Source of the DNA: Patescibacteria group bacterium UBA2135
GTDB taxonomy: Bacteria > Patescibacteriota > Minisyncoccia > Phycocordibacterales > UBA2135
Direction of reading: 5' to 3'
DNA: 54,880 nt
Assembly: GCA_002327685.1 (NCBI GenBank)
Contig: DCXN01000001.1
Span: 12,170-67,049, forward strand
The notes beneath the pieces are model-generated. The model ran no database searches, was not told where the DNA came from, and worked only from the letters and a program-made list of their open reading frames with translations. The translations under genes were made by a program, and so were the position numbers. This document shows positions 6,674 through 49,460 of the stretch, one piece after another (position 1 is the first letter of the stretch; every line of letters begins with the position of its first letter).

Positions 6674-6770
6674 CAAACCTACAACCAACAACTCACAACT
6701 AGCGATTATTTGTTCCATACCTCCAATTGACAGCTAGTTTTGTTGTTGTTTGTTGTGGGTTGTAAGTTGT
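6673..6770. repeat. imperfect inverted repeat built from ACAAC words
   Basis: acaaacctacaaccaacaactcacaactag (6673-6702) versus ctagttttgttgttgtttgttgtgggttgtaagttgt (6734-6770), between convergent parB and rel. Confidence 0.6.
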
Positions 6771-8206
6771 TAGTTATTCTTTTGTAGGGCCGACTTAATA
6801 TGCTTGCGTGCAAGCGTTGTTTTTATATGTAAAAGCCATTTTGTAGTTGGTGATGCTGATCTTTTTGTGATAATTTCCACTTTGTCGCCATTTTTTAGTT
6901 TTGTATCAAGCGATACCAGTTTTTCGTTTACTTTAGCGCCCGCTATGTGGTCACCGATATCAGAATGAATAGCATATGCAAAATCAATTGTGGATGAATC
7001 TTCCGGTAAATCAATTACATCTCCATCTGGAGTGAATACAAATACACGGTCTCTGAAAAAATCCATCTTTAAATCATCAAGAAATTCCTCCGATTTTGCA
7101 ATATGTTTTTGCCATTCAGCCAATTGGACAATCCATGTCAATTTCTTCTTCAGAGGATTACCCTTTTGCCGCTTCACATTTTCTTTAAAACCTAAATGTG
7201 ATGCAATACCGTATTCAGCTTCATCATGCATTTCTTCTGTTCGCATCTGAATTTCAGCAATGCCACCGTCACCGGTAAAAATAGTGGTGTGTAGGCTTTG
7301 ATACCCGTTTGGTTTTGGCGTCGCAATGTAATCTTTGATACGTCCAGGGAGTGGTCGCCACATGTTGTGTGTAATACCGAGAATCCGATAACAGTCATCT
7401 ACTGTTTGGACGATGATGCGCAGGGCGGCGATGTCGTGTATCTTGTCAATGTCCATGTCGTACCGCTTGAGTTTTTTGTATAGGCTATAGAGGTGTTTTA
7501 TCCTGTAGTCAGTTTTAATAGGTTTTATGTTCTCTTTTATAAGCTCTTTTTGCAGTGAGCGATATACCTTTTGCAGATATTTCTGATTTTCTATACTTTT
7601 TTGTTTCAAAAGATCAAGGGTTTCTTTGTATTCTTTCGGATATACATAGGGGAACGCAAGATCTTCAAGCTCTCCTTTGATTTGCCCCATACCAAGTCGG
7701 TGAGCAAGTGGCGCGTATATTTCAAGTGTCTCAAGTGCGATACGTTTTTGTTTTTCAGGACGTACGTGCTCGAGCGTTTTCATGTTGTGGATACGGTCCG
7801 CAAGGCGAATTATAAGCACACGCACATCTTTTGATGTTGCTAAGAGAAATTGACGCAAACTCTCTGCATGCCGCTCAAGCCCTTTATATTCATATTTCCC
7901 AAGCTTCGTCACGCCGCGTACTAAAAATACGATTTCTTCCCCAAATTCTTTTTCTAACTCTTCTTTAGTAACTGAACTATCTTCAAGCGTATCATGTAAA
8001 AGTCCAGCCGCTATTGTTTTTGCATCCATATTGAGTCTTGCGAGTGTCTTTGTTGTTTCAGCAACGTGTTCAAGATATGGTTCTCCAGAAAATCGCTTTT
8101 GACCCCTGTGCACTTTTTCCGCGAACGAAAATGCGTGCGAGATAAGTTTTTTATCTGCAGTGGATTGTGATTTAACGTATTCAAGTATTTCATTGACGTT
8201 AGTCAT
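6770..8206 (-). CDS. RelA/SpoT-family (p)ppGpp synthetase/hydrolase, short form (HD + synthetase + TGS)
   Basis: HD motif LLHDTLEDS, synthetase motifs IAALRIIV and YQSLHTTI, TGS-like VFVFTPDGDVIDLP. At 478 aa it lacks the long C-terminal regulatory region. Confidence 0.9.
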   Translation of the reverse strand: MTNVNEILEYVKSQSTADKKLISHAFSFAEKVHRGQKRFSGEPYLEHVAETTKTLARLNMDAKTIAAGLLHDTLEDSSVTKEELEKEFGEEIVFLVRGVTKLGKYEYKGLERHAESLRQFLLATSKDVRVLIIRLADRIHNMKTLEHVRPEKQKRIALETLEIYAPLAHRLGMGQIKGELEDLAFPYVYPKEYKETLDLLKQKSIENQKYLQKVYRSLQKELIKENIKPIKTDYRIKHLYSLYKKLKRYDMDIDKIHDIAALRIIVQTVDDCYRILGITHNMWRPLPGRIKDYIATPKPNGYQSLHTTIFTGDGGIAEIQMRTEEMHDEAEYGIASHLGFKENVKRQKGNPLKKKLTWIVQLAEWQKHIAKSEEFLDDLKMDFFRDRVFVFTPDGDVIDLPEDSSTIDFAYAIHSDIGDHIAGAKVNEKLVSLDTKLKNGDKVEIITKRSASPTTKWLLHIKTTLARKHIKSALQKNN

Positions 8207-8260
8207 GTATTTGACTATACTCTAAAATAGAAATTAGACAATCAGAAGAGGGTACTCATA

Positions 8261-8410
8261 ATGAATGTCAAAAATACGTATGCGGGTATGGAGGTAGAGA
8301 GATTGTACCACCAGAGGATGACCTTGAAAGACTGGTTGATTGTTGTCTTGATCACTATTGTTTTTATTGGTATAGCTTCCGTTTTCGCTGTTTTTGGTCA
8401 TTTTTGCTAA
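8261..8410 (+). CDS. candidate 49-aa single-TM peptide
   Basis: The ATG follows agaagaggg. Translation MNVKNTYAGMEVERLYHQRMTLKDWLIVVLITIVFIGIASVFAVFGHFC. A hairpin lies immediately downstream. Confidence 0.35.
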   Translation: MNVKNTYAGMEVERLYHQRMTLKDWLIVVLITIVFIGIASVFAVFGHFC

Positions 8411-8420
8411 CAAATTATCA

Positions 8421-8458
8421 AAAACCACACTTTTCGGTGATTAGTGTGGTTTTTTGTT
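8421..8458. terminator. bidirectional terminator (downstream of topA on the - strand)
   Basis: aaaaccacac...gtgtggtttttt. Confidence 0.7.
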
Positions 8459-8487
8459 TTTTTAACGATGCCTAGTAACTTATCTTT

Positions 8488-10698
8488 TTACTTCTTCAAC
8501 TTATGCGGATTATGATTTGAGCACGCCTTATTAGAGCATCGTTCAGGTATTGTTTTTGTTCCGAGCATCATAAGCGAGTTACATTCTGGACATGTTTTTC
8601 CTGTTGGTTTTGCTTTGATCGCAAATTTACATGTTGGGTATTCTGAACAGCTATAAAATTCACCAAAACGGCCGCGTCTAGCAGTTAGGAAACCTTTTCC
8701 ACATTCGGGGCATTTCACATCAGTTTGGTTTTTCTTTTCTTCTTCGGGATCTCCTTTAATAAATTTACATTTTGGATAATTATTACAACCAATAAATTTT
8801 CCAAATCGCCCTTCTCTTTCAATGAGTTTTCCATTTTTACACTTTGTGCATGCTTCACCTGTTTCTTTTGGCCCCGCTAGTTCTTTTCCTTCGATGGTTC
8901 GTGCTCCACTGCAATCTGGAAAATTTCCGCAACTCATAAATTTTCCTGTTTTACTTAATTTAATAACCATTGCTTTGCCGCATTTCGGACAAGGAAATTC
9001 TTTTGGTGCCGCGCCGAGGTCAGTTATTTTTTCAATGCTCTCTTTTGATTTTACGTCTTTAGAAAATGGTGTATAAAAATCAGATAATGTTTTTTGATAT
9101 TCACGCTTGCCGTCGGCAATTTCGTCTAGCTCATTTTCCATCTCTGCCGTAAAAGTGTCGCTGATATATTTGGTAAAATTTTCCTCCAAAAAATCGCTTA
9201 CCACTTCACCGGTATCCGTAGGGAAAAGTGTTCGCCCATCTTTTGTGACATAACCACGGTCAATAATCGTTTTTATAATACTTGCATATGTTGAAGGTCG
9301 CCCAATGCCGCGTTTTTCAAGTTCTTTAATAAGTCCTGCTTCAGTATATCGTCCTGGTGGCTGTGTTTGTTTTTGCTCGTCCTCTATCTTGATAAGAGTA
9401 ACTTGCTCTTTTTCTTTTACGCTTGGAAGCTCAACCGTTTCTCCGCGAGCGGAAGTGTCGGCGGCAAGCCATCCGTCAAAAATTGTTTGTGAACCGTGCG
9501 CGGCAAAATCAGGAATTACCCCGTTGTCTATTTCTACTGTGATTTTTGTTTTCAAGAGTTGCGCGTCTGCCATTTGAGAAGAAATAAACCGCCTCCATAT
9601 CAGACCGTAGAGCCTCTCTTGCTCGTCTGTTGCTCCAGCACTTTCTTTTGATGCGTTTGTTGGACGGACAGCTTCGTGCGCCTCTTGCGCGGCTTTACTC
9701 TTTGTCTTGTATACATGCGCGTCAGCATATTTTTCTCCATATTTTTCTTTAATAACTGCAAGCGCTTGTTTTTGCGCAACAGGACTTATCGTCGTGCTGT
9801 CCGTTCGCATATAAGTAATGTGTCCTGCTTCATAAAGGCGTTGCGCGGTGCGCATCGTGCGTGATGGCGCAAAACCGAGTTGAGAGCTTGCCGCTTGCTG
9901 GAGAGTGGAAGTGGTAAATGGCGCGCGTGAGGTACGTTTCATCTGTGTTTCTTTTACTTCTTTTATAGTCCATGTGCCTTTTTCTCCGTCTGACAGAATT
10001 TGTTCAACTTCTTTTTTCTCACGTGGCTCCTTTACGCAAGTCAAAATTAACTCTTCCGCATTAGTCTGCGTGGAGTCCGCGTCAACCCGCGTATTAGCGG
10101 TGATAACCCAATAGTCTTCTGATTTAAATGCGCGCACCTCGCGCTCTTTCTCCATTAATATACGAAGAGCAGGTGATTGCACACGTCCCGCAGAGAGACC
10201 GTATCTAACTTTTTTCCATATAAGTCCTGAAAGATCATATCCCACAAGGCGGTCAAGCACGCGGCGCGCCTCCTGTGCTTTTCGTAAATTTTGGTCAATG
10301 TCGCGTGGATGCTCCATTGCTTCCTGCACCGCCGGTTTCGTAATTTCATGAAAAACAATCCGCTTAACTTTTAACTTTTCACTTTTAGTTTTTAGCTTGT
10401 CCAACTCGCAGGCTTGGGCAACATGCCATGCGATTGCTTCACCTTCACGGTCTGGGTCAGTTGCAAGAACCACTTCATCTGCTTTTTTGCAGAGTTTTTT
10501 TAATTCTTGCACCACTTTTTCTTTACCTGGAACAACCTCATAATGAGGAATAAACCCACCCTCTATATCTATTGCATCTTTACTGCTTTTTGGTATATCA
10601 CGAATATGCCCGACAGATGATGTGACGGTGTATTTGTTATCTAAATATTTAGATATTGTTTTCGCTTTGGCGGGGGATTCTACGATTAGAAGTTTCAT
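8488..10698 (-). CDS. topA: DNA topoisomerase I
   Basis: TOPRIM N-terminus LIVESPAKAKTI, catalytic region ITYMRTDS, four C-terminal C4 zinc ribbons. Confidence 0.95.
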   Translation of the reverse strand: MKLLIVESPAKAKTISKYLDNKYTVTSSVGHIRDIPKSSKDAIDIEGGFIPHYEVVPGKEKVVQELKKLCKKADEVVLATDPDREGEAIAWHVAQACELDKLKTKSEKLKVKRIVFHEITKPAVQEAMEHPRDIDQNLRKAQEARRVLDRLVGYDLSGLIWKKVRYGLSAGRVQSPALRILMEKEREVRAFKSEDYWVITANTRVDADSTQTNAEELILTCVKEPREKKEVEQILSDGEKGTWTIKEVKETQMKRTSRAPFTTSTLQQAASSQLGFAPSRTMRTAQRLYEAGHITYMRTDSTTISPVAQKQALAVIKEKYGEKYADAHVYKTKSKAAQEAHEAVRPTNASKESAGATDEQERLYGLIWRRFISSQMADAQLLKTKITVEIDNGVIPDFAAHGSQTIFDGWLAADTSARGETVELPSVKEKEQVTLIKIEDEQKQTQPPGRYTEAGLIKELEKRGIGRPSTYASIIKTIIDRGYVTKDGRTLFPTDTGEVVSDFLEENFTKYISDTFTAEMENELDEIADGKREYQKTLSDFYTPFSKDVKSKESIEKITDLGAAPKEFPCPKCGKAMVIKLSKTGKFMSCGNFPDCSGARTIEGKELAGPKETGEACTKCKNGKLIEREGRFGKFIGCNNYPKCKFIKGDPEEEKKNQTDVKCPECGKGFLTARRGRFGEFYSCSEYPTCKFAIKAKPTGKTCPECNSLMMLGTKTIPERCSNKACSNHNPHKLKK

Positions 10699-10795
10699 AT
10701 TTGTATAGTTGACTACTTTAATACTATTCTATCCTTTTTGTCAAGAAAAAGGAAAACCGCATGGCAGAGCCAAGCGGTCTTAGGTCAATAAGGCA

Positions 10796-10822
10796 AATGT
10801 CCGACATCAGATGTCGGACATT
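10796..10822. repeat. short perfect hairpin overlapping the dprA stop
   Basis: aatgtccgacat-cag-atgtcggacatt. Shares the TGTCGGA/TCCGACA word with the ACATTCC family. Confidence 0.8.
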
Positions 10823-11702
10823 AAATGTTCACTCGCATCTCGCCGTGGGTTTCAATGATAAGACCTTTTATCTCCATCGCTGATAAAATAATATTTACAT
10901 TATGTGTTGGTATATCTAATTTCTGCATCAATTCTTCTTTCGTCGTTGGCTCATGTAGTAATTTAAGAATTTGTTTTTCCTCATTGGAGCATTCATCAAA
11001 AACTTTCGACTTTCGACTTTCTACTTTCAACTCTCTATTTAGATTCCAGTGTTCAAGAATGTCTGCACCACATGTTACTGGTATTGCGCCCAATTTTAGC
11101 AATTGGTGCGCTCCGCGCGATTGTGGAGAAAAAATTGAACCTGGTATCACAAATACATCGCGATTATATTCCGTAGCAAGACGCGCGGTAATGAGAGTGC
11201 CAGAGCGTTCTCCTGCTTCAATCACCAAAATACCTCGTGACATTCCTGCCATAATCCGATTTCTTTGTGGAAACGAATAGGGTGTCGCCCTAAAATCTGG
11301 TTCAAATTCTGACAAAAGCGCACCGCCTTCTGAAACAATTTTATTAGCCAATCCGTGATTGCTTGCCGGATACAACACAGATGAGTTAAGACCGGAGCCG
11401 GGGATAGCGATAGTCTTTAATCCTGATTCAAGCGCCGCGCGGTGCGCAATTGCGTCAATACCAAGCGCAAGGCCGGAGATAATGACAATGGGACATTTGA
11501 TATTTAACCTGCCTAAGTCGGAGATGATTTTTTCGCACACCTCTTTTCCGTATGAAGTGTATTTTCGTGAGCCGACCACTGTGAGAAAAATTGCATCTGT
11601 ATTTGGTAACGTTCCCTTTATGTATAGCTTCTTGGGAGCATTAGGAGTTTCAAGTAGTTGAGGAAAGTATTTTTCTATGTCTATAGTTTTTATTTCGTCC
11701 AT
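10821..11702 (-). CDS. dprA: DNA processing protein DprA/Smf
   Basis: VVGSRKYTSYG, GLALGIDAIAHRAAL, and a C-terminal winged-helix tail. Confidence 0.9.
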   Translation of the reverse strand: MDEIKTIDIEKYFPQLLETPNAPKKLYIKGTLPNTDAIFLTVVGSRKYTSYGKEVCEKIISDLGRLNIKCPIVIISGLALGIDAIAHRAALESGLKTIAIPGSGLNSSVLYPASNHGLANKIVSEGGALLSEFEPDFRATPYSFPQRNRIMAGMSRGILVIEAGERSGTLITARLATEYNRDVFVIPGSIFSPQSRGAHQLLKLGAIPVTCGADILEHWNLNRELKVESRKSKVFDECSNEEKQILKLLHEPTTKEELMQKLDIPTHNVNIILSAMEIKGLIIETHGEMRVNI

Positions 11703-11887
11703 ATATTTGTATACTATATACTATATGTATAAAATCAGAAATTATGAATTAGGAATCAAGAAATTGCTTAGTCTAAATTTTCAACACCTAACATCTGTAA
11801 TCCTAAATCACTCCCGCCGGAGGCGGGATGATTGGGCAGACGAATTTCACGAAGTGAAATTGTGTCTTAGCCTAAAACCTAATAATC

Positions 11888-13165
11888 ATGCTTGACATAA
11901 AATTCATTCGTGAGCATCTTGATTTGGTTAAAGATGCCGCGCGCAAAAAACACGTTGACGTTGATATAGACGGGCTTGTTCGGCTTGATCACAAGCGAAC
12001 GGCAACATTACAGGAAGTTGAAAAAATGCGCGCAGAACAAAATGAATCCTCAAAGAAAATTTCGGAAACCTCAGATGAAAGTGAACGAGAAGAAAAGATT
12101 CAACAAATGCGTGCTCTCAAGACGTTTTTGCAGAAAAAAGAGCAGGAGCTTGAAACCGTCATGCAAAAGTGGCGTCCGTTAATGCTTCAGGTGCCAAATA
12201 TTCCTGATATGTCTGTTCCGGAAGGGGAAAGTGATGCAGACAACAAGGAAGCGAAAACATGGGGAAAGATTCCGGAATTCTCTTTTGAGCCAAAAAATCA
12301 CGTTGAGCTTATGAAAAGTCTCAATATGGTTGATTTTGAACGTGGAACAAAAGTTGCCGGTTTTCGTGGGTACTTTCTCAAAAACGACGCAGTTACCCTC
12401 TCCTTGGCGCTTTGGAGGTTTGTCTTTGATTGCTTCAACAACTCTGGATATGAACCGTTAATGGCTCCGTCTCTTGTGCGTGGAGAGAATTTATACGGTA
12501 CCGGACATCTTCCGCATGGAGTGGATGATATATATAAAACACAAGACGATTTATATCTCTCAGCGACCGCTGAAATTCCGCTTATGGGCATGTATGCGAA
12601 TGAAGTCTTTGATGAGAAAGACTTGCCGAAGAAATTTTTGGCATTTTCTCCATGTTTCCGTAGAGAGGCAGGGGCACACGGAAAAGATACAACGGGAATT
12701 TATCGCGTTCACGAATTTTTCAAAGTTGAACAATTTATCTTTGGTAGTGCTGATCATCAAGACACTGTAGTGCTTCATGAAGAACTTACAAAAAACGCTG
12801 AAGAAGTACTCCAAAAACTTGAAATCCCGTATCGTGTTGTCATTAATTGTGGTGGAGATCTAGGTCGCGCGCACGTTAAAACACACGACATTGAAGCGTG
12901 GATTCCATCCGAGAATCGTTATGGCGAATCTCACTCTTCTTCTTATTACCACGATTTTCAAACTCGAAGACTTAATATTCGCTATAGAGATAAAGATGGA
13001 TCACTTCGATTCGTATATTCGCTTAACAATACCGCCCTTGCGACACCGCGCATACTTATCTCCATTATCGAAAACAATCAACAGGAAGACGGTTCCATAA
13101 AAATCCCACGCGTTCTCCAGGGATTTATGGAGAAGGAGGTTATAAGAACGACATTTGACAATTGA
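11888..13165 (+). CDS. serS: seryl-tRNA synthetase
   Basis: N-terminal coiled coil; class II motifs FRREAG and GSALATPR-like NNTALATPR. Confidence 0.95.
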   Translation: MLDIKFIREHLDLVKDAARKKHVDVDIDGLVRLDHKRTATLQEVEKMRAEQNESSKKISETSDESEREEKIQQMRALKTFLQKKEQELETVMQKWRPLMLQVPNIPDMSVPEGESDADNKEAKTWGKIPEFSFEPKNHVELMKSLNMVDFERGTKVAGFRGYFLKNDAVTLSLALWRFVFDCFNNSGYEPLMAPSLVRGENLYGTGHLPHGVDDIYKTQDDLYLSATAEIPLMGMYANEVFDEKDLPKKFLAFSPCFRREAGAHGKDTTGIYRVHEFFKVEQFIFGSADHQDTVVLHEELTKNAEEVLQKLEIPYRVVINCGGDLGRAHVKTHDIEAWIPSENRYGESHSSSYYHDFQTRRLNIRYRDKDGSLRFVYSLNNTALATPRILISIIENNQQEDGSIKIPRVLQGFMEKEVIRTTFDN

Positions 13166-20324: not shown

Positions 20325-22115
20325 ATGAATCAAGAAATTAGAAATATCGCAATCATAGCTCACGTTGACCACGGTAAGACAACTCTTACTGATGCTTTAC
20401 TGCGAGAGATGGGCGCGGTTAAAAGTGGCGTGTCAATGGACTCAAACTCTCTTGAACAAGAGAGGGGTATTACTATTTATTCAAAGAACGCATCTGTAAT
20501 ATATAAAGATACGAAAATTAATATTGTTGATACACCAGGACACGCTGATTTTGGATCTGAAGTTGAGCGAGTGCTTCGTTCAATTGATTCAGTGCTATTA
20601 GTTGTTGACGCTCAAGAGGGGCCAATGCCGCAAACTCGTTTTGTATTAAAAAAATCTCTAGAGCTTGGTCTACGGCCTATCGTAGTTATTAATAAAATAG
20701 ACAAACCCGCGGCTAATCCGAGCCACGCTGAAGAGTTAGTGCTTGAGCTTTTTCTTGAACTTGGCGCAAATGATGAACAGGCGGATTTTGAAGTGGTCTA
20801 TGCAATAGGGCGTGATGGTGTGGCAAAAAGAAACCTTAAAGATGACATGGTAAATTTGGTACCTCTTTTGGACACTATTATTGAAACCGTACCTGCCGCA
20901 AAATCGTATAAAGAAGGAGATGCGTTATCCGCGCAAGTATTCAATCTTGGCTATGATGATTTTACAGGACGACTTGCTGTCGCACGAATTTATGAGGGCA
21001 AAGTTTCTCTTGGTGCGTCACTTTTTATAAAACAAGAAGGAGGTAAAACACGAAGTGGAAAAGTTACCAAACTCTCAACATTTAAAGGATTAGAACAAGT
21101 GCCAGTAGAAGAAGCTTTTGCTGGTGACATTGTACTGATTGCGGGACTTAATGATATTAACATCGGAGAGACTCTCACAACTGACGAACACACAAAACCA
21201 CTTCCTGCTATTGCGATTGATGAGCCGACGATTAGTTTGCGGTTTATGGCAAACACGTCTCCGTTTGCGGGTCGGGAGGGTAAATATGTAACAGGAAGAC
21301 AAATCAAAGAACGGCTTGAGAAGGAGCTTGAAATTAATGTTGGATTACAAATAGATTTTAGCGAGGGAGACGCATTTAAAGTGTTTGGGCGAGGCGAAAT
21401 GCACATCGCTATTCTTCTTGAAAATATGCGTAGAGAAGGATACGAACTCGCAGTATCACAACCACAAGTTATTTTTCATAAAGAAGATGATGGTAAAGTG
21501 CACGAGCCGTACGAAGAGGTTATAGTTGATATACCAGAGTCATATCAAGGCGCGGTGATTAAACGACTTTCAAGCAGGGCTTTCGTTATGCAGAACATGA
21601 ACACGACGGATAATCAGGTGCGACTTATTTTTGAAGGTCCAACGCGAGGACTTCTGGGATACAGAGGGCAGTTTGTTATTGATACAAAAGGCGAGGGTAT
21701 TTTATGTTCTCGGATGCTTGGTTTTCGCCCGTTTGCGGGTGAAATAAAAAAACGTGTTGTTGGCTCAATGATATCTATGGCGACAGGAAAAGCGTTGGGC
21801 TTTTCTCTTTGGAATTTACAGGAACGCGGGATACTTTATATTGGTCATGGGACTGATATTTATGAAGGGATGGTTGTTGGGAATACTTCCAAAGGTGAAG
21901 AGATGGTTGTAAATCCAACTAAAGGAAAACAACTTACAAACATACGCGCGGCTGGATCCGATGACACGATTGATATTACCCCACACCAAGAACTTACAAT
22001 TGAAAATGGGCTTGAGATTATGTCAGATGATGAGCTTCTTGAAGTAACGCCATTGTCCGTGCGACTCCGTAAGCAATATCTTACGGAGAATGAACGCGTT
22101 AAACACAAGCGATAA
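20325..22115 (+). CDS. typA: translational GTPase TypA/BipA
   Basis: [22 protein letters not shown]; 596 aa with EF-G-like domains. Confidence 0.95.
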
Positions 22116-23548: not shown

Positions 23549-23647
23549 GTTGAGGATGATGAAAATTATCTTGTGATTTTTTTCGTATGATGTAGTATGC
23601 GGGTAGAATTAGTGTAGAAAAACTAGAAACAGAAAAGGAGACGATAC

Positions 23648-24955
23648 ATGTCTGTGGTTTATAAAAAAGACAAACTACTTAGCGAAGGAAAAACAAAGAA
23701 GGTTTTCTCTGTAGAGAATAATTCATCCATCGTTATTGTTGAATCAAAAGATGACATTACTGCCGGCGATGGGGCAAAACGAGAGGTTATCCCAGACAAG
23801 GGCACATGGGCAACGGCAACTACGAGCAATGTATTCCGCCTTTTAGAAGAATGTGGTAAGCGCACCGCATTTCGTGAACAAATCTCTCCGACAGAGTTTG
23901 TTGCAGAGAAGTGTGACATGACAGATCTTGAGGTGATAGCTAGAAGAGAAGGTCACGGGTCACACCTAAAAAGAAATCCACATCATCAAAAAGGGGTCTT
24001 TTTCCCGAAGCTTCTTGTTGAATTTTATCTCAAGACAAGCGATAAAAAATGGAGAGGCAAAGATCTTCCTGTCAATGATCCTCTAATTCAGTTTATACAT
24101 AGAGAAAACGGTACAATAAAAGGAATAGAGCTTTATAGACCTGATAAACCACTTGCGGCACAAGTTCCTTTTATGACTGTAGACCATTTTCCGTTTAAGT
24201 GGGATCAAAAAGCACTTGTGGATATGGAAGATACCGCGCGAACTAGTTTCTTAATACTTGAAAAAGCGTGGCTGATTGAAGGATATCGTCTGGTTGACTT
24301 TAAAATAGAATTTGGTTTCAATGCTGATCGCAAATTGGTACTTGCTGATGTTATTGATAATGACTCATGGCGGATTGTACGTTCTGATTCATATTATGAT
24401 AAACAAGTGTTTCGCGATGGTGGTGAACTTAGCGATGTTGCCAAAAAATATTCAACTGTCGCCGAAGCAACAAAACATTTTCGCCTTCCTCGTCAAAGGA
24501 TTATTCTCTGGAGAGGCTCGGAGGGTGATGATATATCATCTTTTGAAACTGGATTTGAGAATTTTTTTGGGTTACCGGATTGTGAGCTTAGATACCATAC
24601 AAGGTCTATGCATAAACAAACAAGGCAGGGGCTTGATGAACTTGATAGTTGGGTTAATAGTACTAAAGATGGAGACATCGGTTGCGTGAACACTGTCGTA
24701 ATTGCTTATGTCGGCATGAGCAATGGCGCTGGTCCAACATTGGCCGCGCATACTCATGTTCCCGTTATAGCCTGTTCTCCCACTGTAAAAGATTTTCCAG
24801 AAGATATTTGGTCATCTTTGCGAATGCCCAGTGGTGTTCCCCTCATGACAGTTCTTTCCCCTAGAAACGCGCTTCTTGCCGCTTTTGGAATTCTTGCAAT
24901 ACGAAGCCCGCGTGTCTACGCGCTTTTACGGAGATCTATTGAGGAACGTTTGTAA
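23648..24955 (+). CDS. fused SAICAR synthetase / PurE-like AIR carboxylase (PAICS-like)
   Basis: N-terminal half: SEGKTKKVF, SKDDITAGDGAK, VDFKIEFG, LADVIDNDSWR. C-terminal half: YVGMSNGAGPTLAAHTHVPVIACSP and WSSLRMPSGVPLMTVLSP. aaaaggag lies upstream of the ATG. Confidence 0.8.
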   Translation: MSVVYKKDKLLSEGKTKKVFSVENNSSIVIVESKDDITAGDGAKREVIPDKGTWATATTSNVFRLLEECGKRTAFREQISPTEFVAEKCDMTDLEVIARREGHGSHLKRNPHHQKGVFFPKLLVEFYLKTSDKKWRGKDLPVNDPLIQFIHRENGTIKGIELYRPDKPLAAQVPFMTVDHFPFKWDQKALVDMEDTARTSFLILEKAWLIEGYRLVDFKIEFGFNADRKLVLADVIDNDSWRIVRSDSYYDKQVFRDGGELSDVAKKYSTVAEATKHFRLPRQRIILWRGSEGDDISSFETGFENFFGLPDCELRYHTRSMHKQTRQGLDELDSWVNSTKDGDIGCVNTVVIAYVGMSNGAGPTLAAHTHVPVIACSPTVKDFPEDIWSSLRMPSGVPLMTVLSPRNALLAAFGILAIRSPRVYALLRRSIEERL

Positions 24956-24977
24956 ACGTTGTAATAAGAATTTTCAA

Positions 24978-25004
24978 AGTCCCGCTTTTAGCGGGACTTT
25001 TTTG
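24978..25004 (+). terminator. intrinsic terminator
   Basis: agtcccgc-tttta-gcgggact then T6. Confidence 0.85.
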
Positions 25005-25134
25005 TTAAAAAAAGGATTTCCCTCCACGATTCAACTTACTCTTACTGGCTGGGGAACTTATTCATTGATATTATGTAAAGAAACAGTGTAAAATAGACTA
25101 ACTGATGATTAATAGTTAAAATTAAAAAATTAAA

Positions 25135-32774: not shown

Positions 32775-33485
32775 ATGAATCTCATAAAAGCACGCAATAT
32801 AGAGAAAATATATTCTGATGGAACCCATGCCTTGCACGGGGTTTCTTTTGATATTAAAGAAGGGGAATTTGCTGCCATCATGGGTCCTTCTGGCTCCGGA
32901 AAATCAACCTTGCTTCATATCATTGGTTTTTTAGACACGCAAAGTGCAGGTGAATATTATTTCAACGGTAAATCATTTTTAGATTATACTCCAGACGAAG
33001 TAGCGCATATCCGAAATCAGGAGATGGGATTCGTGTTTCAAATGTTTAATTTATTACCGCGAGCAACTGTTCTTGAGAATGTGACATTGCCACTTGTATA
33101 TTCTTCAGTGAAGGGACATCTACGGGAGACGCTTGCACGAAAAGCGATTGAATCAGTTGGTCTTTCGCATCGCGCAGAGTATGAAGCGTTTAAGCTCTCT
33201 GGCGGAGAACGTCAGCGTGTTGCCATTGCGCGCGCTTTGGTTAATAAGCCGCAAATTATCTTTGCTGACGAACCCACTGGAAATTTAGACACAAAATCTG
33301 GTAAGGCGGTAATGGAAATTATTGAACGATTAAACGAAGAAGATGGACACACTATTGTTCTTATTACGCACGAGACACACACTGCTGAACACGCGCAAAG
33401 GATTATCAAAATTTTAGATGGAAAAGTGGAAAGTGATGAGGTTGTAGGAAACAGATATCATGCGAGAGAACACTTTAAAAAATAA
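32775..33485 (+). CDS. ABC transporter ATP-binding protein (MacB/LolD type)
   Basis: Walker A GPSGSGKST, signature LSGGERQR, Walker B IIFADEPT. Confidence 0.95.
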   Translation: MNLIKARNIEKIYSDGTHALHGVSFDIKEGEFAAIMGPSGSGKSTLLHIIGFLDTQSAGEYYFNGKSFLDYTPDEVAHIRNQEMGFVFQMFNLLPRATVLENVTLPLVYSSVKGHLRETLARKAIESVGLSHRAEYEAFKLSGGERQRVAIARALVNKPQIIFADEPTGNLDTKSGKAVMEIIERLNEEDGHTIVLITHETHTAEHAQRIIKILDGKVESDEVVGNRYHAREHFKK

Positions 33486-33501
33486 AAAATCAAAAATAAA
33501 A

Positions 33502-33873
33502 ATGCAAAATGACAAAGTAAAATTTAAAAATGAGTTCAAAAAACGGCTTTATATGTTTACTCTTAAGCTCATTGAATTTATAGACAAATTACCCAAAGAT
33601 AATGTTTCTAGAAGAATTGGAGATCAGTTGCTGCGAAGCGGGACAAGTATTATTGCGAACCATACAGAAGGACAAGCGGCCAGTAGTAAAAAAGATTTTA
33701 CAAACTTTTTCAATTATTCTCTAAAATCAGCAAATGAGAGTAAATTATGGATCGCGTTATTACGGGATAGTGGCAGAGTAACAGCTTCAGATACGTCATG
33801 GTTTTTGAAAGAGCTTGATGAAATTGCAAATATATTTGGCTCGAGCATCCTTACTTTGAGAGGTAAAAGATAA
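33502..33873 (+). CDS. four-helix-bundle protein (23S rRNA-intervening-sequence / Avd family)
   Basis: FTLKLIEFIDKLPKD..SRRIGDQLLRSGTSIIANHTEGQAASSKKDFTNFFNYSLKSANESKLWI, the typical family signature. Confidence 0.8.
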   Translation: MQNDKVKFKNEFKKRLYMFTLKLIEFIDKLPKDNVSRRIGDQLLRSGTSIIANHTEGQAASSKKDFTNFFNYSLKSANESKLWIALLRDSGRVTASDTSWFLKELDEIANIFGSSILTLRGKR

Positions 33874-36008: not shown

Positions 36009-37325
36009 TTAGGAGTTTAAAATACGTTTTGTTTCTGTTTTGTAAAGTTCAACGTGTGGTTGGTCAAAGGTATTCACATTGAAGAGTTTTCCCAAATACA
36101 TCATTTCAATCATCTTAAATTGCAGAAATTGCCCGAGCGAATATTCTGAAATATCATCAAGAATTACTTCCATAAATGGAATTTCCTGTTTTTGGTATGC
36201 AATTTTTGTTCCCTCAAGAATTGCGTTTTTAATATCGGTAAATGTTTTTCCGCTAATTCCCGGAACAAGTTCTGTGAATGTTTCTGAATTAAGTGTGTAG
36301 CTGTTATCGTCATCGTTGGTGTTCCGCGCCCACATAAATGTAGTGAATTTGTCATTTGGTCCGCCGAGATAAAGTTGTCCGACTGAATGCAGGTCAGTTG
36401 AGCCAATTGAGATAGTTGGCGTAATGCCCGCGTGTACCCCATTGCCTCCTTCGTCTTTTTCTTTACCAATTGATTCTCCAATAAGTTGACGATACCATTT
36501 GCCGACCGATTCAAGTTCCGGTTCAAATATGAAATTATCGTTAGTTGTATATCCCTTCTTGTTGTTTAAAAAGAGGAGTATCGCGGAGATGAGAGCGGGA
36601 TTTTCCGGAATTTCTCTGCCAATACACTTGTCGCGCATATTAATTGCTCCTTGCCACAATTTTTCTATATCAATTCCGCATGTGGTAAGAGGAAAAAGTC
36701 CCATAGCAGAAAATACAGAAAATCTCCCACCTACTTTTTCCGGGATTGAAAGTACATCAATACCAAGTTCTTCTCCCAGTTTCCAAAGTTTTGAATTTTC
36801 ATCTGTAATGAGGACAAAACGATCTGTTGCATCGGAAAATTTTTGCTGTAAGGCATTAAATACAAACTCGGCATTTGCTGTAGTCTCGGTTGTGCCGCCA
36901 GATTTACTGACAATACTGACAAAAAAATCTTCTTTAGAATTAAGCTGGTTATTAACAAATTTTGTAAAGTGTTTCGCGAATAGATCATGTGTCGTGTCAA
37001 AAAATATCATTTTGGGAAAACGCTCTGGTTCTAAAATATTGAAATGCCCCAAAAGAGCATCATATATTGCTTTTGTTCCCAAGTTTGGACCTCCTATGCC
37101 GACGACAATAAAATACTTAACTTTTCCGACTGATTTTTTTTCCATCATTTCACGCACATTGTCAAGGAGCGCTTCGTCAGATGGAAGATTAATAGAGCTT
37201 TCGTGGTGTTCGTAACCACCATTTTCCACTACCTGTTTTAAGTATTCACTGTACGGAATGAGTGATTGTGCAGTGGTGTTAATATCTTTTTCCGATACAC
37301 GGGAATGTTGGTATAATAATTTCAT
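36009..37325 (-). CDS. pgi: glucose-6-phosphate isomerase
   Basis: VVGIGGPNLG, SKSGGTTET, GGRFSVFSAMG. Confidence 0.9.
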   Translation of the reverse strand: MKLLYQHSRVSEKDINTTAQSLIPYSEYLKQVVENGGYEHHESSINLPSDEALLDNVREMMEKKSVGKVKYFIVVGIGGPNLGTKAIYDALLGHFNILEPERFPKMIFFDTTHDLFAKHFTKFVNNQLNSKEDFFVSIVSKSGGTTETTANAEFVFNALQQKFSDATDRFVLITDENSKLWKLGEELGIDVLSIPEKVGGRFSVFSAMGLFPLTTCGIDIEKLWQGAINMRDKCIGREIPENPALISAILLFLNNKKGYTTNDNFIFEPELESVGKWYRQLIGESIGKEKDEGGNGVHAGITPTISIGSTDLHSVGQLYLGGPNDKFTTFMWARNTNDDDNSYTLNSETFTELVPGISGKTFTDIKNAILEGTKIAYQKQEIPFMEVILDDISEYSLGQFLQFKMIEMMYLGKLFNVNTFDQPHVELYKTETKRILNS

Positions 37326-46121: not shown

Positions 46122-47942
46122 ATGTACAAGCCAATTCGCGATTACGCAATAATAGGAAATTTACGCTCCGCGGCGCTTGTTTCTAAAGATGGCTCAATTG
46201 ATTGGGCACCTGCGCCGTTTATCAATTCTCCTGGCGTTTTTAACGCAATACTTGACGATAACATCGGCGGATTTTGGAGCATTCAACCGGAAGAGCCATT
46301 TACATCATCTCAGAAATATGACGGGGACACGAATGTGCTTATTACACGATTTAAGACGCAGAATGGAATAGTGGAAGTAACTGACTTTATCCCCATAGAG
46401 ACAGAGAAGACATTCGTACCGGCTGAAGAAGACACTACGTTTCGTATTCACAGAAAAGTGGCTGGCGTTGAAGGTTCATGTAAGATGCGTATTGTTTTTA
46501 TGCCGCGATTTGATTACGCACGCGGACAAACAAAACTTTCTTTAGTAGATGGCGGTATATATATTAAAAATGAGGAAAAACATGGTGTGCTCGCCTCATT
46601 GGTGCCATTTGAGATTAAGGACAATACTGCAATTGCGACGTTTGTATTAGGCGCTGGTGCACACAATTTTTTTATTTTTAGATACAATGTTGGCGAAGTT
46701 GTTTTCCATGAGGAAGGAAAACAGCATCACAATGAAGAATTAAAAGTAACAAAGCAATTTTGGGGCGACTGGGTGCATAATTGTGATATTAGAAAATGCT
46801 CTGTCGCGGGGAAATGGCATGTTCCTGTGGTGCGATCTTCTCTTTTGCTTAAAATTCTTTTTTTTGAGCCTGTTGGAACTATTGCGGCGGCTCCAACAAC
46901 TTCCTTGCCTGAAACAATGGGTGGGATGCGAAATTGGGATTATCGTTTTACATGGATTCGTGATTCAGCGTTCACTCTTTCAGCTTTGTTTCGCCTTGGT
47001 TATTTCAAAGAAGCAGAAGAATATATTCGGTGGGTAATTACAACTTGTGGCACTACAGCCGGCGAAGCAACCCCGGAAAAATTACAAGTTATGTATGGGT
47101 TGCAGGGTGAGAGTACTCTCACAGAGGAAACACTTGATCATCTAGAAGGGTATATGGAATCGCGACCTGTCAGAATTGGCAATAATGCGTATAAACAAAA
47201 ACAATGGGACATATATGGAAGCGTGCTTGATATGGTTTGGACAATTCACCTTTCACGTGAACAGCATGTGGTTAGCCAAGAGACATGGAATACACTGCGA
47301 ACTTTTGCAAACCATGTCGTGGATATATGGCGAGAACCCGATGAAGGCCTGTGGGAGGTTCGTGCGAAACCGCAACACTTTTTATATTCAAAGGTTATGT
47401 GTTGGGTTGCACTTGATCGAGCAATTAAAATCGCACGTGCCCACAATCTTGATGGTGATATTGAAAAGTGGGAACGCGAACGGGATGAAGTCTCTGAAGA
47501 GGTTTTAAAACGTGGCTGGAGTGAGAAAAAACAATCATTTACGCAGAGTTTTGATTCCGAGGATGTTGATGCGTCCGCGCTCACGTTCTCAAAACTTGGT
47601 TTTATAAAAGGGGATGATCCACGCATGATTTCTACTATAAAACGTATTGAGGAAGAATTATCAAGTGGCGATGGATTACTCCGCAGATACACGAGCAAAG
47701 ATGGTTTGCTTGGCACGGAAGGAGTGTTCTTGCTTGCCTCGTTTTGGTTAATTGATGCTTTGATTCTTACTGGAGAACGCGAGCGGGCAGAAAAAATATT
47801 TGAAAAAATCCTATCTTTACAAAATCACGTTGGTCTTTTCTCTGAAGAATTGAATCCGGATACAAAAGAATTTTTGGGGAATTTTCCTCAAGCATACACA
47901 CATATCGGTCTTATTAATAGCGCGTTTAATTTAATAAATTAA
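46122..47942 (+). CDS. glycoside hydrolase family 15 (glucoamylase/trehalase-like)
   Basis: YAIIGNLRSAALVSKDGSIDWAPAPFINSP N-terminal signature. (alpha/alpha)6 catalytic-domain motifs NWDYRFTWIRDSAF. Confidence 0.85.
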   Translation: MYKPIRDYAIIGNLRSAALVSKDGSIDWAPAPFINSPGVFNAILDDNIGGFWSIQPEEPFTSSQKYDGDTNVLITRFKTQNGIVEVTDFIPIETEKTFVPAEEDTTFRIHRKVAGVEGSCKMRIVFMPRFDYARGQTKLSLVDGGIYIKNEEKHGVLASLVPFEIKDNTAIATFVLGAGAHNFFIFRYNVGEVVFHEEGKQHHNEELKVTKQFWGDWVHNCDIRKCSVAGKWHVPVVRSSLLLKILFFEPVGTIAAAPTTSLPETMGGMRNWDYRFTWIRDSAFTLSALFRLGYFKEAEEYIRWVITTCGTTAGEATPEKLQVMYGLQGESTLTEETLDHLEGYMESRPVRIGNNAYKQKQWDIYGSVLDMVWTIHLSREQHVVSQETWNTLRTFANHVVDIWREPDEGLWEVRAKPQHFLYSKVMCWVALDRAIKIARAHNLDGDIEKWERERDEVSEEVLKRGWSEKKQSFTQSFDSEDVDASALTFSKLGFIKGDDPRMISTIKRIEEELSSGDGLLRRYTSKDGLLGTEGVFLLASFWLIDALILTGERERAEKIFEKILSLQNHVGLFSEELNPDTKEFLGNFPQAYTHIGLINSAFNLIN

Positions 47943-47972
47943 GGAGCAAAGCGACTATAATTTATTAACCCA

Positions 47973-48180
47973 GCACATAACTTTAACTTAAATTTTTCGG
48001 TCTTAAAGAAGCCAAGGTCCGGCCTTTTCCCAAAAACTGTGCGGCCAGGTCTGGCCTTGAGGAGGAGTGAAACGACGGGAGAAGACCAGACCTTGCGGTA
48101 CAGTTTTCCTCAGTTTTTTCCTCAAGGCCGGACCTAGCCTGCTATTTTTACCGAAAAATTTAAGTTAAAGTTATGTGCTC
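47973..48180. repeat. 208-nt rod-like palindromic element with perfect 30-bp termini
   Basis: agcacataactttaacttaaatttttcggt (47973-48002) is the exact reverse complement of 48151-48180. Inner helices: aggtccggcctt/aaggccggacct (12 bp), aaaactgt/acagtttt, aggtctgg/ccagacct. Confidence 0.95.
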
Positions 48181-48222
48181 GGTGATGATTTTTATACTCG
48201 CTACGCTCGTTAAAAATCTATC

Positions 48223-48435
48223 ATGATTGAAATTAGCAGTTCATTTATTAGTTTAACACTTGGCATGGTTGGCACGGTCTTTATAGCGTATGCCGCCTTG
48301 CGGGTGCATCATCGTGTGCTTGGTGAGCATAAAATTGACGAAAAAGTACTCAAAACTATGCGCATTGAGCAAATTGTCGGATGGGCTGGCGTGTCAATGG
48401 TTGTTGCGGGGTATGCAATAACAATTTTTAGTTAA
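48223..48435 (+). CDS. hypothetical small membrane protein (2 TM)
   Basis: 70 aa with two hydrophobic helices flanking a charged loop. Confidence 0.45.
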   Translation: MIEISSSFISLTLGMVGTVFIAYAALRVHHRVLGEHKIDEKVLKTMRIEQIVGWAGVSMVVAGYAITIFS

Positions 48436-48471
48436 AGCCTTGCATCTAATTTTTAATAAAAATCAGAAAAT

Positions 48472-48608
48472 TTCTAATTTCTAATTCACCTAATTTCTAA
48501 TAAAAGGTCAAAGGTCAAATGCTTAAATTCCAGAAAAATCGTTTTGACATTGGACATTATTGAATTAGACCTTTTATTAGGTGAATTAGAAATTAGGTGA
48601 ATTAGGAA
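48472..48608. repeat. inverted repeat built from CTAATTT/CTAATTCAC words
   Basis: ttctaatttctaattcacctaatttctaataaaaggtc versus gaccttttattaggtgaattagaaattaggtgaattaggaa. The loop carries GGTCAAA/TTTGACA words. Confidence 0.8.
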
Positions 48609-48617
48609 TTTATTTAT

Positions 48618-49460
48618 ATGTACATTTTATTTGACATTGGAGGAACAAAAATGCGTGTTGCAGCATCAACTGATGGTGAATCGATTCAAAATATAGAGAA
48701 ACGTGAAACTCCTGTTGATGATTTTGATGCAGGAATGAGGTTGTTTCAGGAAATGGTGGAAGACGTTGCTGGAGGTGAAAAAATTACGGCGATCGCTGGT
48801 GGTATTGCTGGCCCGCTTGATCAGGAAAAAACTAAAATGGTAAATTCTCCAAATATTGGAGGATGGATAGGAAAGCCGCTCAAGAAAAGTCTAGAAGACG
48901 CATTTAATGTACCAGTATTTTTGGAGAATGATTCCGCGCTTGTAGGTCTTGGTGAGGCGGTATACGGTGCCGGAAAGGGTGAAAGGATTGTTGCATATAT
49001 TACAGTGAGTACAGGTGTTGGCGGCGCTCGTATTGTTGATGGCAGAATTGATGAAAGCGCGTTTGGGTTTGAACCCGGACATCACATCATTGATATACAT
49101 GGAGGTCCGTGTGCGTCTTGTAAAAATCCTGGAGACCTTGAATCGTATGTATCCGGTTCTGCTATGGAAAAACAATTTGGCAAAAAACCGATTGAAATTA
49201 CTGACGAAAAGATTTGGGATGAATACGCGCGGGTGCTTGCCTATGGATTAAATAATATTGCGGTATTATGGTCGCCGCATGTTATTGTTCTTGGTGGGTC
49301 AATGATAGTGGGAGATCCCGCCATCCCTATTGAGAATATTCGTGAACATTTCTCTCGTTTAGTGCATATTTTTCCTCAACGGCCAGAACTTAAAAAGGCA
49401 GAGTTAAAAGATGAAGGAGGGCTTTATGGCGCGCTTGCGTACGCAAAACAGAATATGTAA
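48618..49460 (+). CDS. ROK-family sugar kinase (glucokinase-like)
   Basis: LFDIGGTKMRVA, ENDSALVGLGEAVYGAGKG, and a Cys cluster GPCASCKNPGDLE. Confidence 0.8.
   Translation: MYILFDIGGTKMRVAASTDGESIQNIEKRETPVDDFDAGMRLFQEMVEDVAGGEKITAIAGGIAGPLDQEKTKMVNSPNIGGWIGKPLKKSLEDAFNVPVFLENDSALVGLGEAVYGAGKGERIVAYITVSTGVGGARIVDGRIDESAFGFEPGHHIIDIHGGPCASCKNPGDLESYVSGSAMEKQFGKKPIEITDEKIWDEYARVLAYGLNNIAVLWSPHVIVLGGSMIVGDPAIPIENIREHFSRLVHIFPQRPELKKAELKDEGGLYGALAYAKQNM

Follow-up and report, generated by a model that had tools for sequence, protein, structure and literature searches.

The stretch analysed here, a window of 54,880 nucleotides on contig DCXN01000001.1 of Patescibacteria group bacterium UBA2135 (assembly GCA_002327685.1, contig positions 12,170 to 67,049), carries at 23648 to 24955 of its + strand a gene, here called purCE, that probably encodes an active bifunctional enzyme with the architecture of animal PAICS: a succinylaminoimidazolecarboxamide ribonucleotide (SAICAR) synthetase joined to a class II aminoimidazole ribonucleotide (AIR) carboxylase. 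The enzyme would be native to the genome of a marine member of the Patescibacteria and would convert AIR through carboxyaminoimidazole ribonucleotide (CAIR) to SAICAR without PurK, a reading to which we assign a probability of roughly 70%. The open reading frame (ORF) runs uninterrupted from ATG to TAA over 435 amino acids, and its identification draws on Pfam, a PDB sequence search, an AlphaFold model and Foldseek. From the letters alone, this gene had been described as animal-type and possibly acquired horizontally from a eukaryote; instead, purCE is an ordinary native metabolic gene of a bacterium with a reduced genome; it belongs to a large and little-studied bacterial family and was not borrowed from animals.

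Domain architecture and active sites

Both catalytic domains are recognizable within the single chain. Pfam assigns the N-terminal part to SAICAR_synt (E 8e-42) and residues 348-429 to AIRC (E 1e-14), and the best sequence matches in PDB are the PAICS proteins of human (2h31, E 1.5e-57) and Bombyx (4ja0, E 8e-53), each aligned over both halves; matches to stand-alone proteins are far weaker, at best E 1e-25 for PurC and E 6e-6 for PurE. The sequence-only reading had recognized a SAICAR synthetase followed by PurE, in the order and at the length of metazoan PAICS, and the ORF, the Pfam matches and the full-chain matches to human and Bombyx PAICS all agree with it. The motifs that it quoted are likewise in place: SKDDITAGDGAK at residues 33-44, VDFKIEFG at 216-223, LADVIDNDSWR at 232-242, MSNGAGPTLAAHTHVPVIACSP at 357-378 and WSSLRMPSGVPLMTVLSP at 388-405. 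It had also judged the synthetase motif to be of the PAICS type rather than that of bacterial PurC, and this holds, with DVIDNDSWR standing where the aligned PurC of 4fe2 has DEFSPDNCRLW.

The structural model leads to the same assignment. Built on an alignment of 49 sequences, the AlphaFold model of PurCE reached a predicted local distance difference test score (pLDDT) of 93.2 and a predicted template modelling score (pTM) of 0.93, and Foldseek aligns the whole chain with human PAICS 6yb8_A (E 7e-36) as well as with Bombyx PAICS 4ja0. Taken separately, the N-terminal half (residues ~6-278; 23663 to 24481, + strand, as for all features of this gene) matches stand-alone PurC structures with target template modelling (TM) scores of 0.85-0.90, and the C-terminal half aligns with the entire class II PurE of Treponema denticola (157 columns, target TM 0.80). 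A truncated or degenerate PurE half had been a candidate, in that the Pfam AIRC match covers only profile positions 55-140 of 148; it was rejected, the full T. denticola PurE being aligned and the GSxxD loop present. Because the model aligns with PurE over its full length, the partial Pfam match is no sign of a truncated domain, and the domain is complete at residues ~282-435 (24491 to 24952).

The two classes of PurE can be told apart by their '70s loop', which in class II reads G-x-S-N-(G/A) rather than the G-G-A-A-H of class I. PurCE has G356-M-S-N-G at this position, the T. denticola protein has AGRSNALSG, and the class I protein of Coxiella has GLAAHLAG; by sequence, the PurE half ranks PAICS (E 1.7e-16) ahead of T. 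denticola class II PurE (1.2e-6) and the best class I protein (3.8e-5). Since the S-N-G loop and this ranking both indicate class II, the C-terminal domain is identified as a class II PurE, the type that acts as a direct, CO2-dependent AIR carboxylase. The T. denticola enzyme (3RG8/3RGG) is its best stand-alone match and shares the class II fold, the G-x-S-N loop and an SSLRMPSG motif, but it is a separate protein of 159 residues, whereas the domain in PurCE is fused behind PurC and is about 25% identical to it. Similarly, the short stand-alone PurC proteins (S. pneumoniae 4FE2, M. jannaschii 2YZL, E. coli 2GQR) have the fold and chemistry of a SAICAR synthetase, but lack a PurE domain and carry DE(F/I)SPD(N/S)CRLW in place of DVIDNDSWR.

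To compare the active sites, the ligand-binding residues listed for human PAICS (PMC9376930) were mapped onto an alignment of 124 family members. In the synthetase site, G14, K15, T16, K17, T38, E95, K129, D144, K219, E221, D234, D239, S240, W241, R242, K252 and R256 match the human list, and all ligands of ATP, Mg2+, CAIR and aspartate are conserved or conservatively replaced, with the exception of human D133, which corresponds to S131 in a column that is variable family-wide. These residues include the ATP-binding loop G14-K15-T16-K17 (human G16-K19; 23687 to 23698), which is near-invariant in the family, and the DVIDNDSWR motif (24347 to 24373), whose D234, D239, S240, W241 and R242 are the CAIR/SAICAR-binding residues of PAICS-type synthetases. 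The core of the AIR carboxylase is present as well (S291, D294, S320, H322, K323, G356, S358, N359 and G360). It is spread over the phosphate/ribose loop G290-S291-E292-G293-D294 (human G273-S-T-S-D277; 24515 to 24529), in which S291 and D294 are kept, the segment S320-M321-H322-K323 (human S301-A-H303-K304; 24605 to 24616), with H322 as the predicted general base, and the class II 'SNG' loop G356-M-S-N-G-A-G-P363 (24713 to 24736), where class I PurE reads A-A-H. Active-site positions are near-invariant across both the 49 and the 124 family members, and the catalytic residues of both sites are kept throughout the clade to which PurCE belongs, at only 61-65% identity. A PurE half without catalytic residues, an outcome that the sequence-only reading had wanted checked, is therefore not what the alignment contains.

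By analogy with human PAICS and T. denticola PurE, the class II PurE domain would combine AIR with CO2 to form CAIR and would require neither PurK nor ATP for this step. H322 would act as the general base, the aminoimidazole would be held by S320 and the backbone of G356, the ribose by D294, and the phosphate by S291 and K323. The synthetase domain would then use ATP to phosphorylate the carboxylate of CAIR and condense the product with aspartate to give SAICAR, with ATP bound by G14-K17, Mg2+ by E95 and D144, and aspartate by T38, K219, K252 and R256; PurB and PurH would finish the synthesis of inosine monophosphate (IMP). We infer both catalytic activity and an octameric assembly like that of PAICS.

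A bacterial family and its relation to animal PAICS

PurCE belongs to a large set of prokaryotic proteins. Among 5.8 billion clustered proteins, 2681 match it at E<=1e-10. The closest share 65%, 61% and 61% identity with PurCE; after these come a very large number of proteins that have its two-domain architecture and are 52-55% identical, several of them named from metagenome-assembled genomes (MAGs) of Pseudolabrys type. When 1.84 billion representatives were searched exhaustively, at least 382 clusters (at 50% identity) passed E<=1e-30, PurC-only proteins and fragments counted in; among the best 150 representative clusters, both domains are covered in 82, and another 56 consist of PurC-only proteins of PAICS type (~280 amino acids). 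Such PurC-only synthetases occur, for example, in Roseiflexaceae and other Chloroflexota and in DPANN archaea (Iainarchaeum, Micrarchaeota), and two clusters (P0200 and P0212) have about 160 additional N-terminal residues.

Scans of GTDB species genomes, one of them with a 15-sequence alignment, recovered full-length matches across a broad range of lineages. Within the candidate phyla radiation (CPR), these are Paceibacterota, Gracilibacteria, MAGs labelled Saccharibacteria, and Staskawicz-, Vogel-, Giovannoni-, Taylor- and Nomurabacteria; outside it, they include Xanthobacteraceae and other Hyphomicrobiales, Tepidisphaerales, Polyangiaceae, Gammaproteobacteria, and, among Verrucomicrobiota, Chthoniobacter-type genomes, Spartobacteria and Akkermansiaceae. 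The fusion is found also in Armatimonadota and in Eremiobacterota/Vulcanimicrobiota, such that, besides many lineages of the CPR, at least eight other bacterial phyla have a fused PurCE. The clade of the window protein itself (PurCE, P0002-P0004 and P0121) has no representative among the GTDB species-genome matches listed, and no source names are recorded for its members. The GTDB genomes closest to the host by their BipA protein (L084-L087, 78-81%) are absent among the fused-gene matches listed, where an orthologue would have ranked first. On this weak evidence, the distribution of purCE within the CPR looks patchy.

Across the named loci examined, both halves lie in one uninterrupted ORF in 33 of 36. 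Among the Chloroflexota matches, the PurC and PurE parts are separated by a stop codon in two (L262 and L263), and a third (L264) has frameshifts. In the first of these, an Anaerolineae MAG (L262:2624-3940, JADYZS010000185.1), a PAICS-type purC ends at its stop codon and a class II purE with the motifs GSKSD, SAHK and AGRSNALSG begins two codons on in the same frame; judged from its reading frames, this pair is a putative unfused, adjacent state, one point mutation short of fusion.

Reviews describe the fused PurCE with class II AIR carboxylase as eukaryotic, and separate PurK, PurE and PurC as bacterial (PMC3261824, PMC10912719). Contrary to this picture, the fused, PurK-independent form occurs in the CPR and in at least eight other phyla, where annotation pipelines often name it poorly: the database names of prokaryotic fused proteins range from 'phosphoribosylaminoimidazole carboxylase / SAICAR synthase' through 'AIR carboxylase family protein' to 'hypothetical protein'. 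We found no paper describing a bacterial or CPR family of PAICS-type fused proteins, and among the matches there was no dedicated NCBIfam model for such a family.

If the gene had been acquired recently from an animal or another eukaryote, its resemblance to metazoan PAICS in domain order and length, its best PDB match, and the description of the fusion in the reviews as eukaryotic would all be accounted for. Unfortunately for this explanation, PurCE is 34-38% identical to human PAICS as compared with 50-65% to its prokaryotic homologues, several hundred clusters match it as noted above, PurC-only proteins and fragments among them, and the fusion exists in dozens of named bacterial genomes. 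The phylogeny leads away from animals as well. In neighbour-joining (NJ) trees, in which the backbone is unresolved and local groupings are robust, PurCE pairs with P0002 (bootstrap 96-97), then with P0003 and P0004 (100), then with P0121 (54-80), whereas the animal sequences, which include an ADE2-like protein of a sponge, join Armatimonadota P0253, Woykebacteria/Microgenomates P0228 and Eremiobacterota/Vulcanimicrobiota in one separate clade with bootstrap 100. Because PurCE falls outside that clade, its architecture is of the PAICS type, yet the protein itself is not specifically animal-like.

The composition of the gene is that of its surroundings. Its GC content is 0.415 (window mean 0.408, sd 0.022), its GC content at third codon positions is 0.312 (window 0.340, sd 0.025), and its codon-usage divergence is the second lowest among 39 genes. 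On these measures purCE looks native, as it does from its own ribosome-binding site and terminator and from the identity of its DNA in independent assemblies. Identity ranking, phylogeny and composition thus reject a recent transfer from a eukaryote to this bacterium, an explanation that we regard as extremely improbable. The apparent anomaly thereby disappears, and purCE of the window provides no evidence of animal-to-bacterium transfer.

Set beside the metazoan enzymes (human 2H31/6YB8, Bombyx mori 4JA0), then, PurCE likewise combines a synthetase with a class II AIR carboxylase in a single polypeptide of about 430 residues, and shares the whole-chain fold, the ATP, CAIR and aspartate ligands, and the S-x-H-K and S-N-G motifs. 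It differs in being prokaryotic, intron-free and monocistronic, in the inserted segments of its synthetase domain (near residues 130-143 and 150-190), and at two phosphate-binding positions considered below. With the fused proteins of prokaryotic MAGs (Xanthobacteraceae/Pseudolabrys, Chthoniobacter-type Verrucomicrobiota, Taylor-, Vogel- and Staskawiczbacteria, and Armatimonadota VGFD01), it shares architecture and conserved residues at 44-65% identity; the clade of PurCE is, however, a distinct branch of isolated genes, in contrast to the pur clusters in which the Armatimonadota gene and several of the remaining CPR genes sit. The fused purCE of Armatimonadota is itself 48-50% identical to human and insect PAICS, and its robust clustering with animal PAICS, together with sequences of Eremiobacterota and Woykebacteria, invites the question whether the animal fusion arose in bacteria or was transferred.

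Gene context and the purine pathway

In several relatives, the fused gene is found among genes for later or earlier steps of purine synthesis. A Taylorbacteria contig (L242) has purCE (7977-9326), purB (9453-10961) and purH (11074-12660) in a row; in Vogelbacteria (L237), purH and purB are followed by purCE in divergent orientation; and three other CPR loci read purCE-purB-purH-purM (L230), purH-purCE (L246), and purCE near a large purL and purA (L008). The most complete arrangement is that of the Armatimonadota MAG contig VGFD01000039.1 (L259:6464-16653, on the same contig as L261), with purH-purCE-purM-purS-purQ-purL-guaB-guaA. These clusters tie the fused family to IMP synthesis, and show that at least the half of the pathway leading from AIR to IMP is retained in some CPR lineages, which bears on how far these depend on hosts for nucleotides. 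Directly upstream of purCE in the Taylorbacteria contig (L242:6473-7795, MHRT01000007.1) lies a gene for a 440-residue protein with an orotidine monophosphate (OMP) decarboxylase domain at residues 217-431; with a 216-residue N-terminal region besides this domain, it may be another fused enzyme of nucleotide synthesis.

Several observations weigh against an active PurCE serving purine synthesis in the window genome. PurCE misses the NCBIfam equivalog cut-offs for both of its halves (TIGR00081, 92.7 vs 189.9 bits; TIGR01162, 55.5 vs 149.6 bits), and two human phosphate ligands of the AIR carboxylase are changed, S276 to G293 and R331 to M357. Among the 124 family members, the S276 column holds K in 53, S in 30, N in 10 and D in 6, and the R331 column R in 58, M in 25 and L in 20; the clade of PurCE is without the lysine that most family members have at the former. 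No other purine gene was found in the window or in about 10 kb past each of its ends (~75 kb of contiguous DNA), by Pfam on the window ORFs, precomputed Pfam for all called genes, and tblastn with eleven E. coli proteins (PurF, D, N, L, M, K, E, C, B, H and A). This extends the statement, made from the sequence alone, that 55 kb contain no second purine gene, and includes the absence of any local tblastn match to PurK in the window or its extensions. The other members of the clade whose context is known (L164, L260) are also isolated, in unrelated neighbourhoods, and our literature search found no assay of any prokaryotic fused member. Finally, PurB and PurH have to be assumed: we infer that other parts of the host genome encode them, along with the earlier steps or some supply of AIR.

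Alternatively, PurCE could be a relic, a pseudo-enzyme or a moonlighting protein that has lost its metabolic role and is kept for a structural or regulatory function. The gene is isolated, two of its AIR-carboxylase phosphate-binding positions are unlike those of human PAICS, and its closest homologue (P0002, 65% identity; L164:1804-3210, a contig from Logan SRR13258546) is inserted between rplB (L2) and rpsS (S19) of the ribosomal S10 operon, a position unusual for a metabolic gene that implies co-expression with ribosomal proteins. Against such a role, the ORF is intact and has a strong ribosome-binding site and a terminator, the catalytic residues of both sites are retained despite the divergence within the clade, and the columns of G293 and M357 vary also in members that lie within pur clusters. 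We consider loss of the metabolic role very improbable. Elsewhere in the clade, P0121 lies between an FAD (flavin adenine dinucleotide) oxidase gene and a hypothetical gene, and the alphaproteobacterial fused members are likewise isolated.

A different possibility is that the enzyme is active, but that the genome lacks the upper pathway (purF, purD, purN, purL and purM), and PurCE, with PurB and PurH encoded elsewhere, turns scavenged AIR or its riboside into IMP. CPR bacteria are generally reported to be without de novo nucleotide synthesis, purCE of the window is isolated within about 75 kb, and three CPR relatives have a compact purCE-purB-purH arrangement with no upper-pathway gene within 8 kb; in the neighbourhoods of L237, L242 and L246, the remainder holds no upper-pathway pur gene. 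The purM directly after purH in L230, the large purL in L008 and the several upper-pathway genes of the Armatimonadota locus argue against extending such a salvage module to the whole family, and neither a transporter nor a kinase for AIR was seen near purCE of the window. The sequence-only reading had offered a salvage or repair enzyme, or a moonlighting protein, as alternatives; nothing positive turned up in support of these, and the same gene accompanies purB, purH and purM in other CPR genomes. We view the salvage module as unlikely, although less so than the other two alternatives.

A still more tentative idea, to which we give slightly less weight, is that PurCE is among the very few purine-synthesis genes kept in a marine lineage resembling Paceibacteria, and that its truncated route from AIR to IMP is supplied by scavenging an aminoimidazole intermediate from a host. 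If true, this would be a previously undescribed salvage of a purine intermediate in the CPR, and a weakened phosphate site (G293, M357) would hint at an altered form of the substrate.

Local isolation can also be viewed in light of another nucleotide gene in the window. A lone PyrF-type OMP decarboxylase gene (310 amino acids; 1049 to 1981, + strand) has no other pyrimidine-synthesis genes nearby, which suggests that nucleotide-synthesis genes are scattered in the host genome rather than absent. Because PyrF is isolated too, the solitary position of purCE is weak evidence for an absent pathway.

Local signals, host and neighbouring genes

The gene appears to be a transcription unit of its own. 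Upstream, a Shine-Dalgarno-like AAAGGAGA read from the sequence (23634 to 23641, + strand) is spaced 6 nt from the ATG; its GGAG core (23637-23640) ends 7 nt ahead of this codon. Downstream, a strong intrinsic terminator (24976 to 25010, + strand) starts 21 nt past the stop codon; its hairpin has an 11-bp stem, of which six pairs are G-C, and a 3-nt loop, and is accompanied by a T-run; because this terminator follows purCE directly, the unit is monocistronic. A promoter scan at purCE gave weak consensus matches only, with no excess over the shuffled expectation, and a search for a purine, ZTP or PRPP (phosphoribosyl pyrophosphate) riboswitch or leader gave only sub-threshold chance matches. 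The neighbours of purCE are a gene for a hypothetical protein on the opposite strand and, downstream, genes for a metallo-beta-lactamase/ODP protein, a PAS protein and a HAMP protein.

The origin of the DNA is consistent between sources. The window is identical to contig NZBX01000029.1 of NCBI assembly GCA_002688065.1, and an ENA contig of 135 kb contains it too, as do several contigs from marine metagenomes. Across independent assemblies (ENA, NCBI and Logan), purCE and 3 kb on each side are the same DNA, so the linkage of purCE is not an assembly artefact. An assembly chimera or mis-binning was rejected on the identity of the gene and its flanks in these three sources and on the CPR housekeeping genes that flank it. 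Since this DNA is identical, a comparison of the assemblies is uninformative on selection.

The BipA gene of the window (20325 to 22115) is 74-81% identical to those of Patescibacteria (Wolfebacteria, Kaiserbacteria, Paceibacterota), with nothing else that close. Because this level of identity is restricted to the Patescibacteria, the host is, as judged from this gene, a bacterium of the CPR. The sequence-only reading had described organisms of the host's type as usually lacking de novo purine synthesis, which agrees with a host from the CPR, a group generally reported to lack nucleotide synthesis.

The window contains several other genes that can be named. A RelA/SpoT-type enzyme of guanosine tetra- and pentaphosphate ((p)ppGpp) metabolism is encoded at 6770-8206 (- strand), and a 23S-rRNA-intervening-sequence protein (PF05635) at 33460-33873 (+ strand). 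A glycoside hydrolase family 15 (GH15) glucoamylase and a ROK kinase lie at 46122-49460 (+ strand) and a glucose-6-phosphate isomerase (PGI) at 36009-37325, which point to a small sugar-utilization repertoire, typical of CPR genomes.

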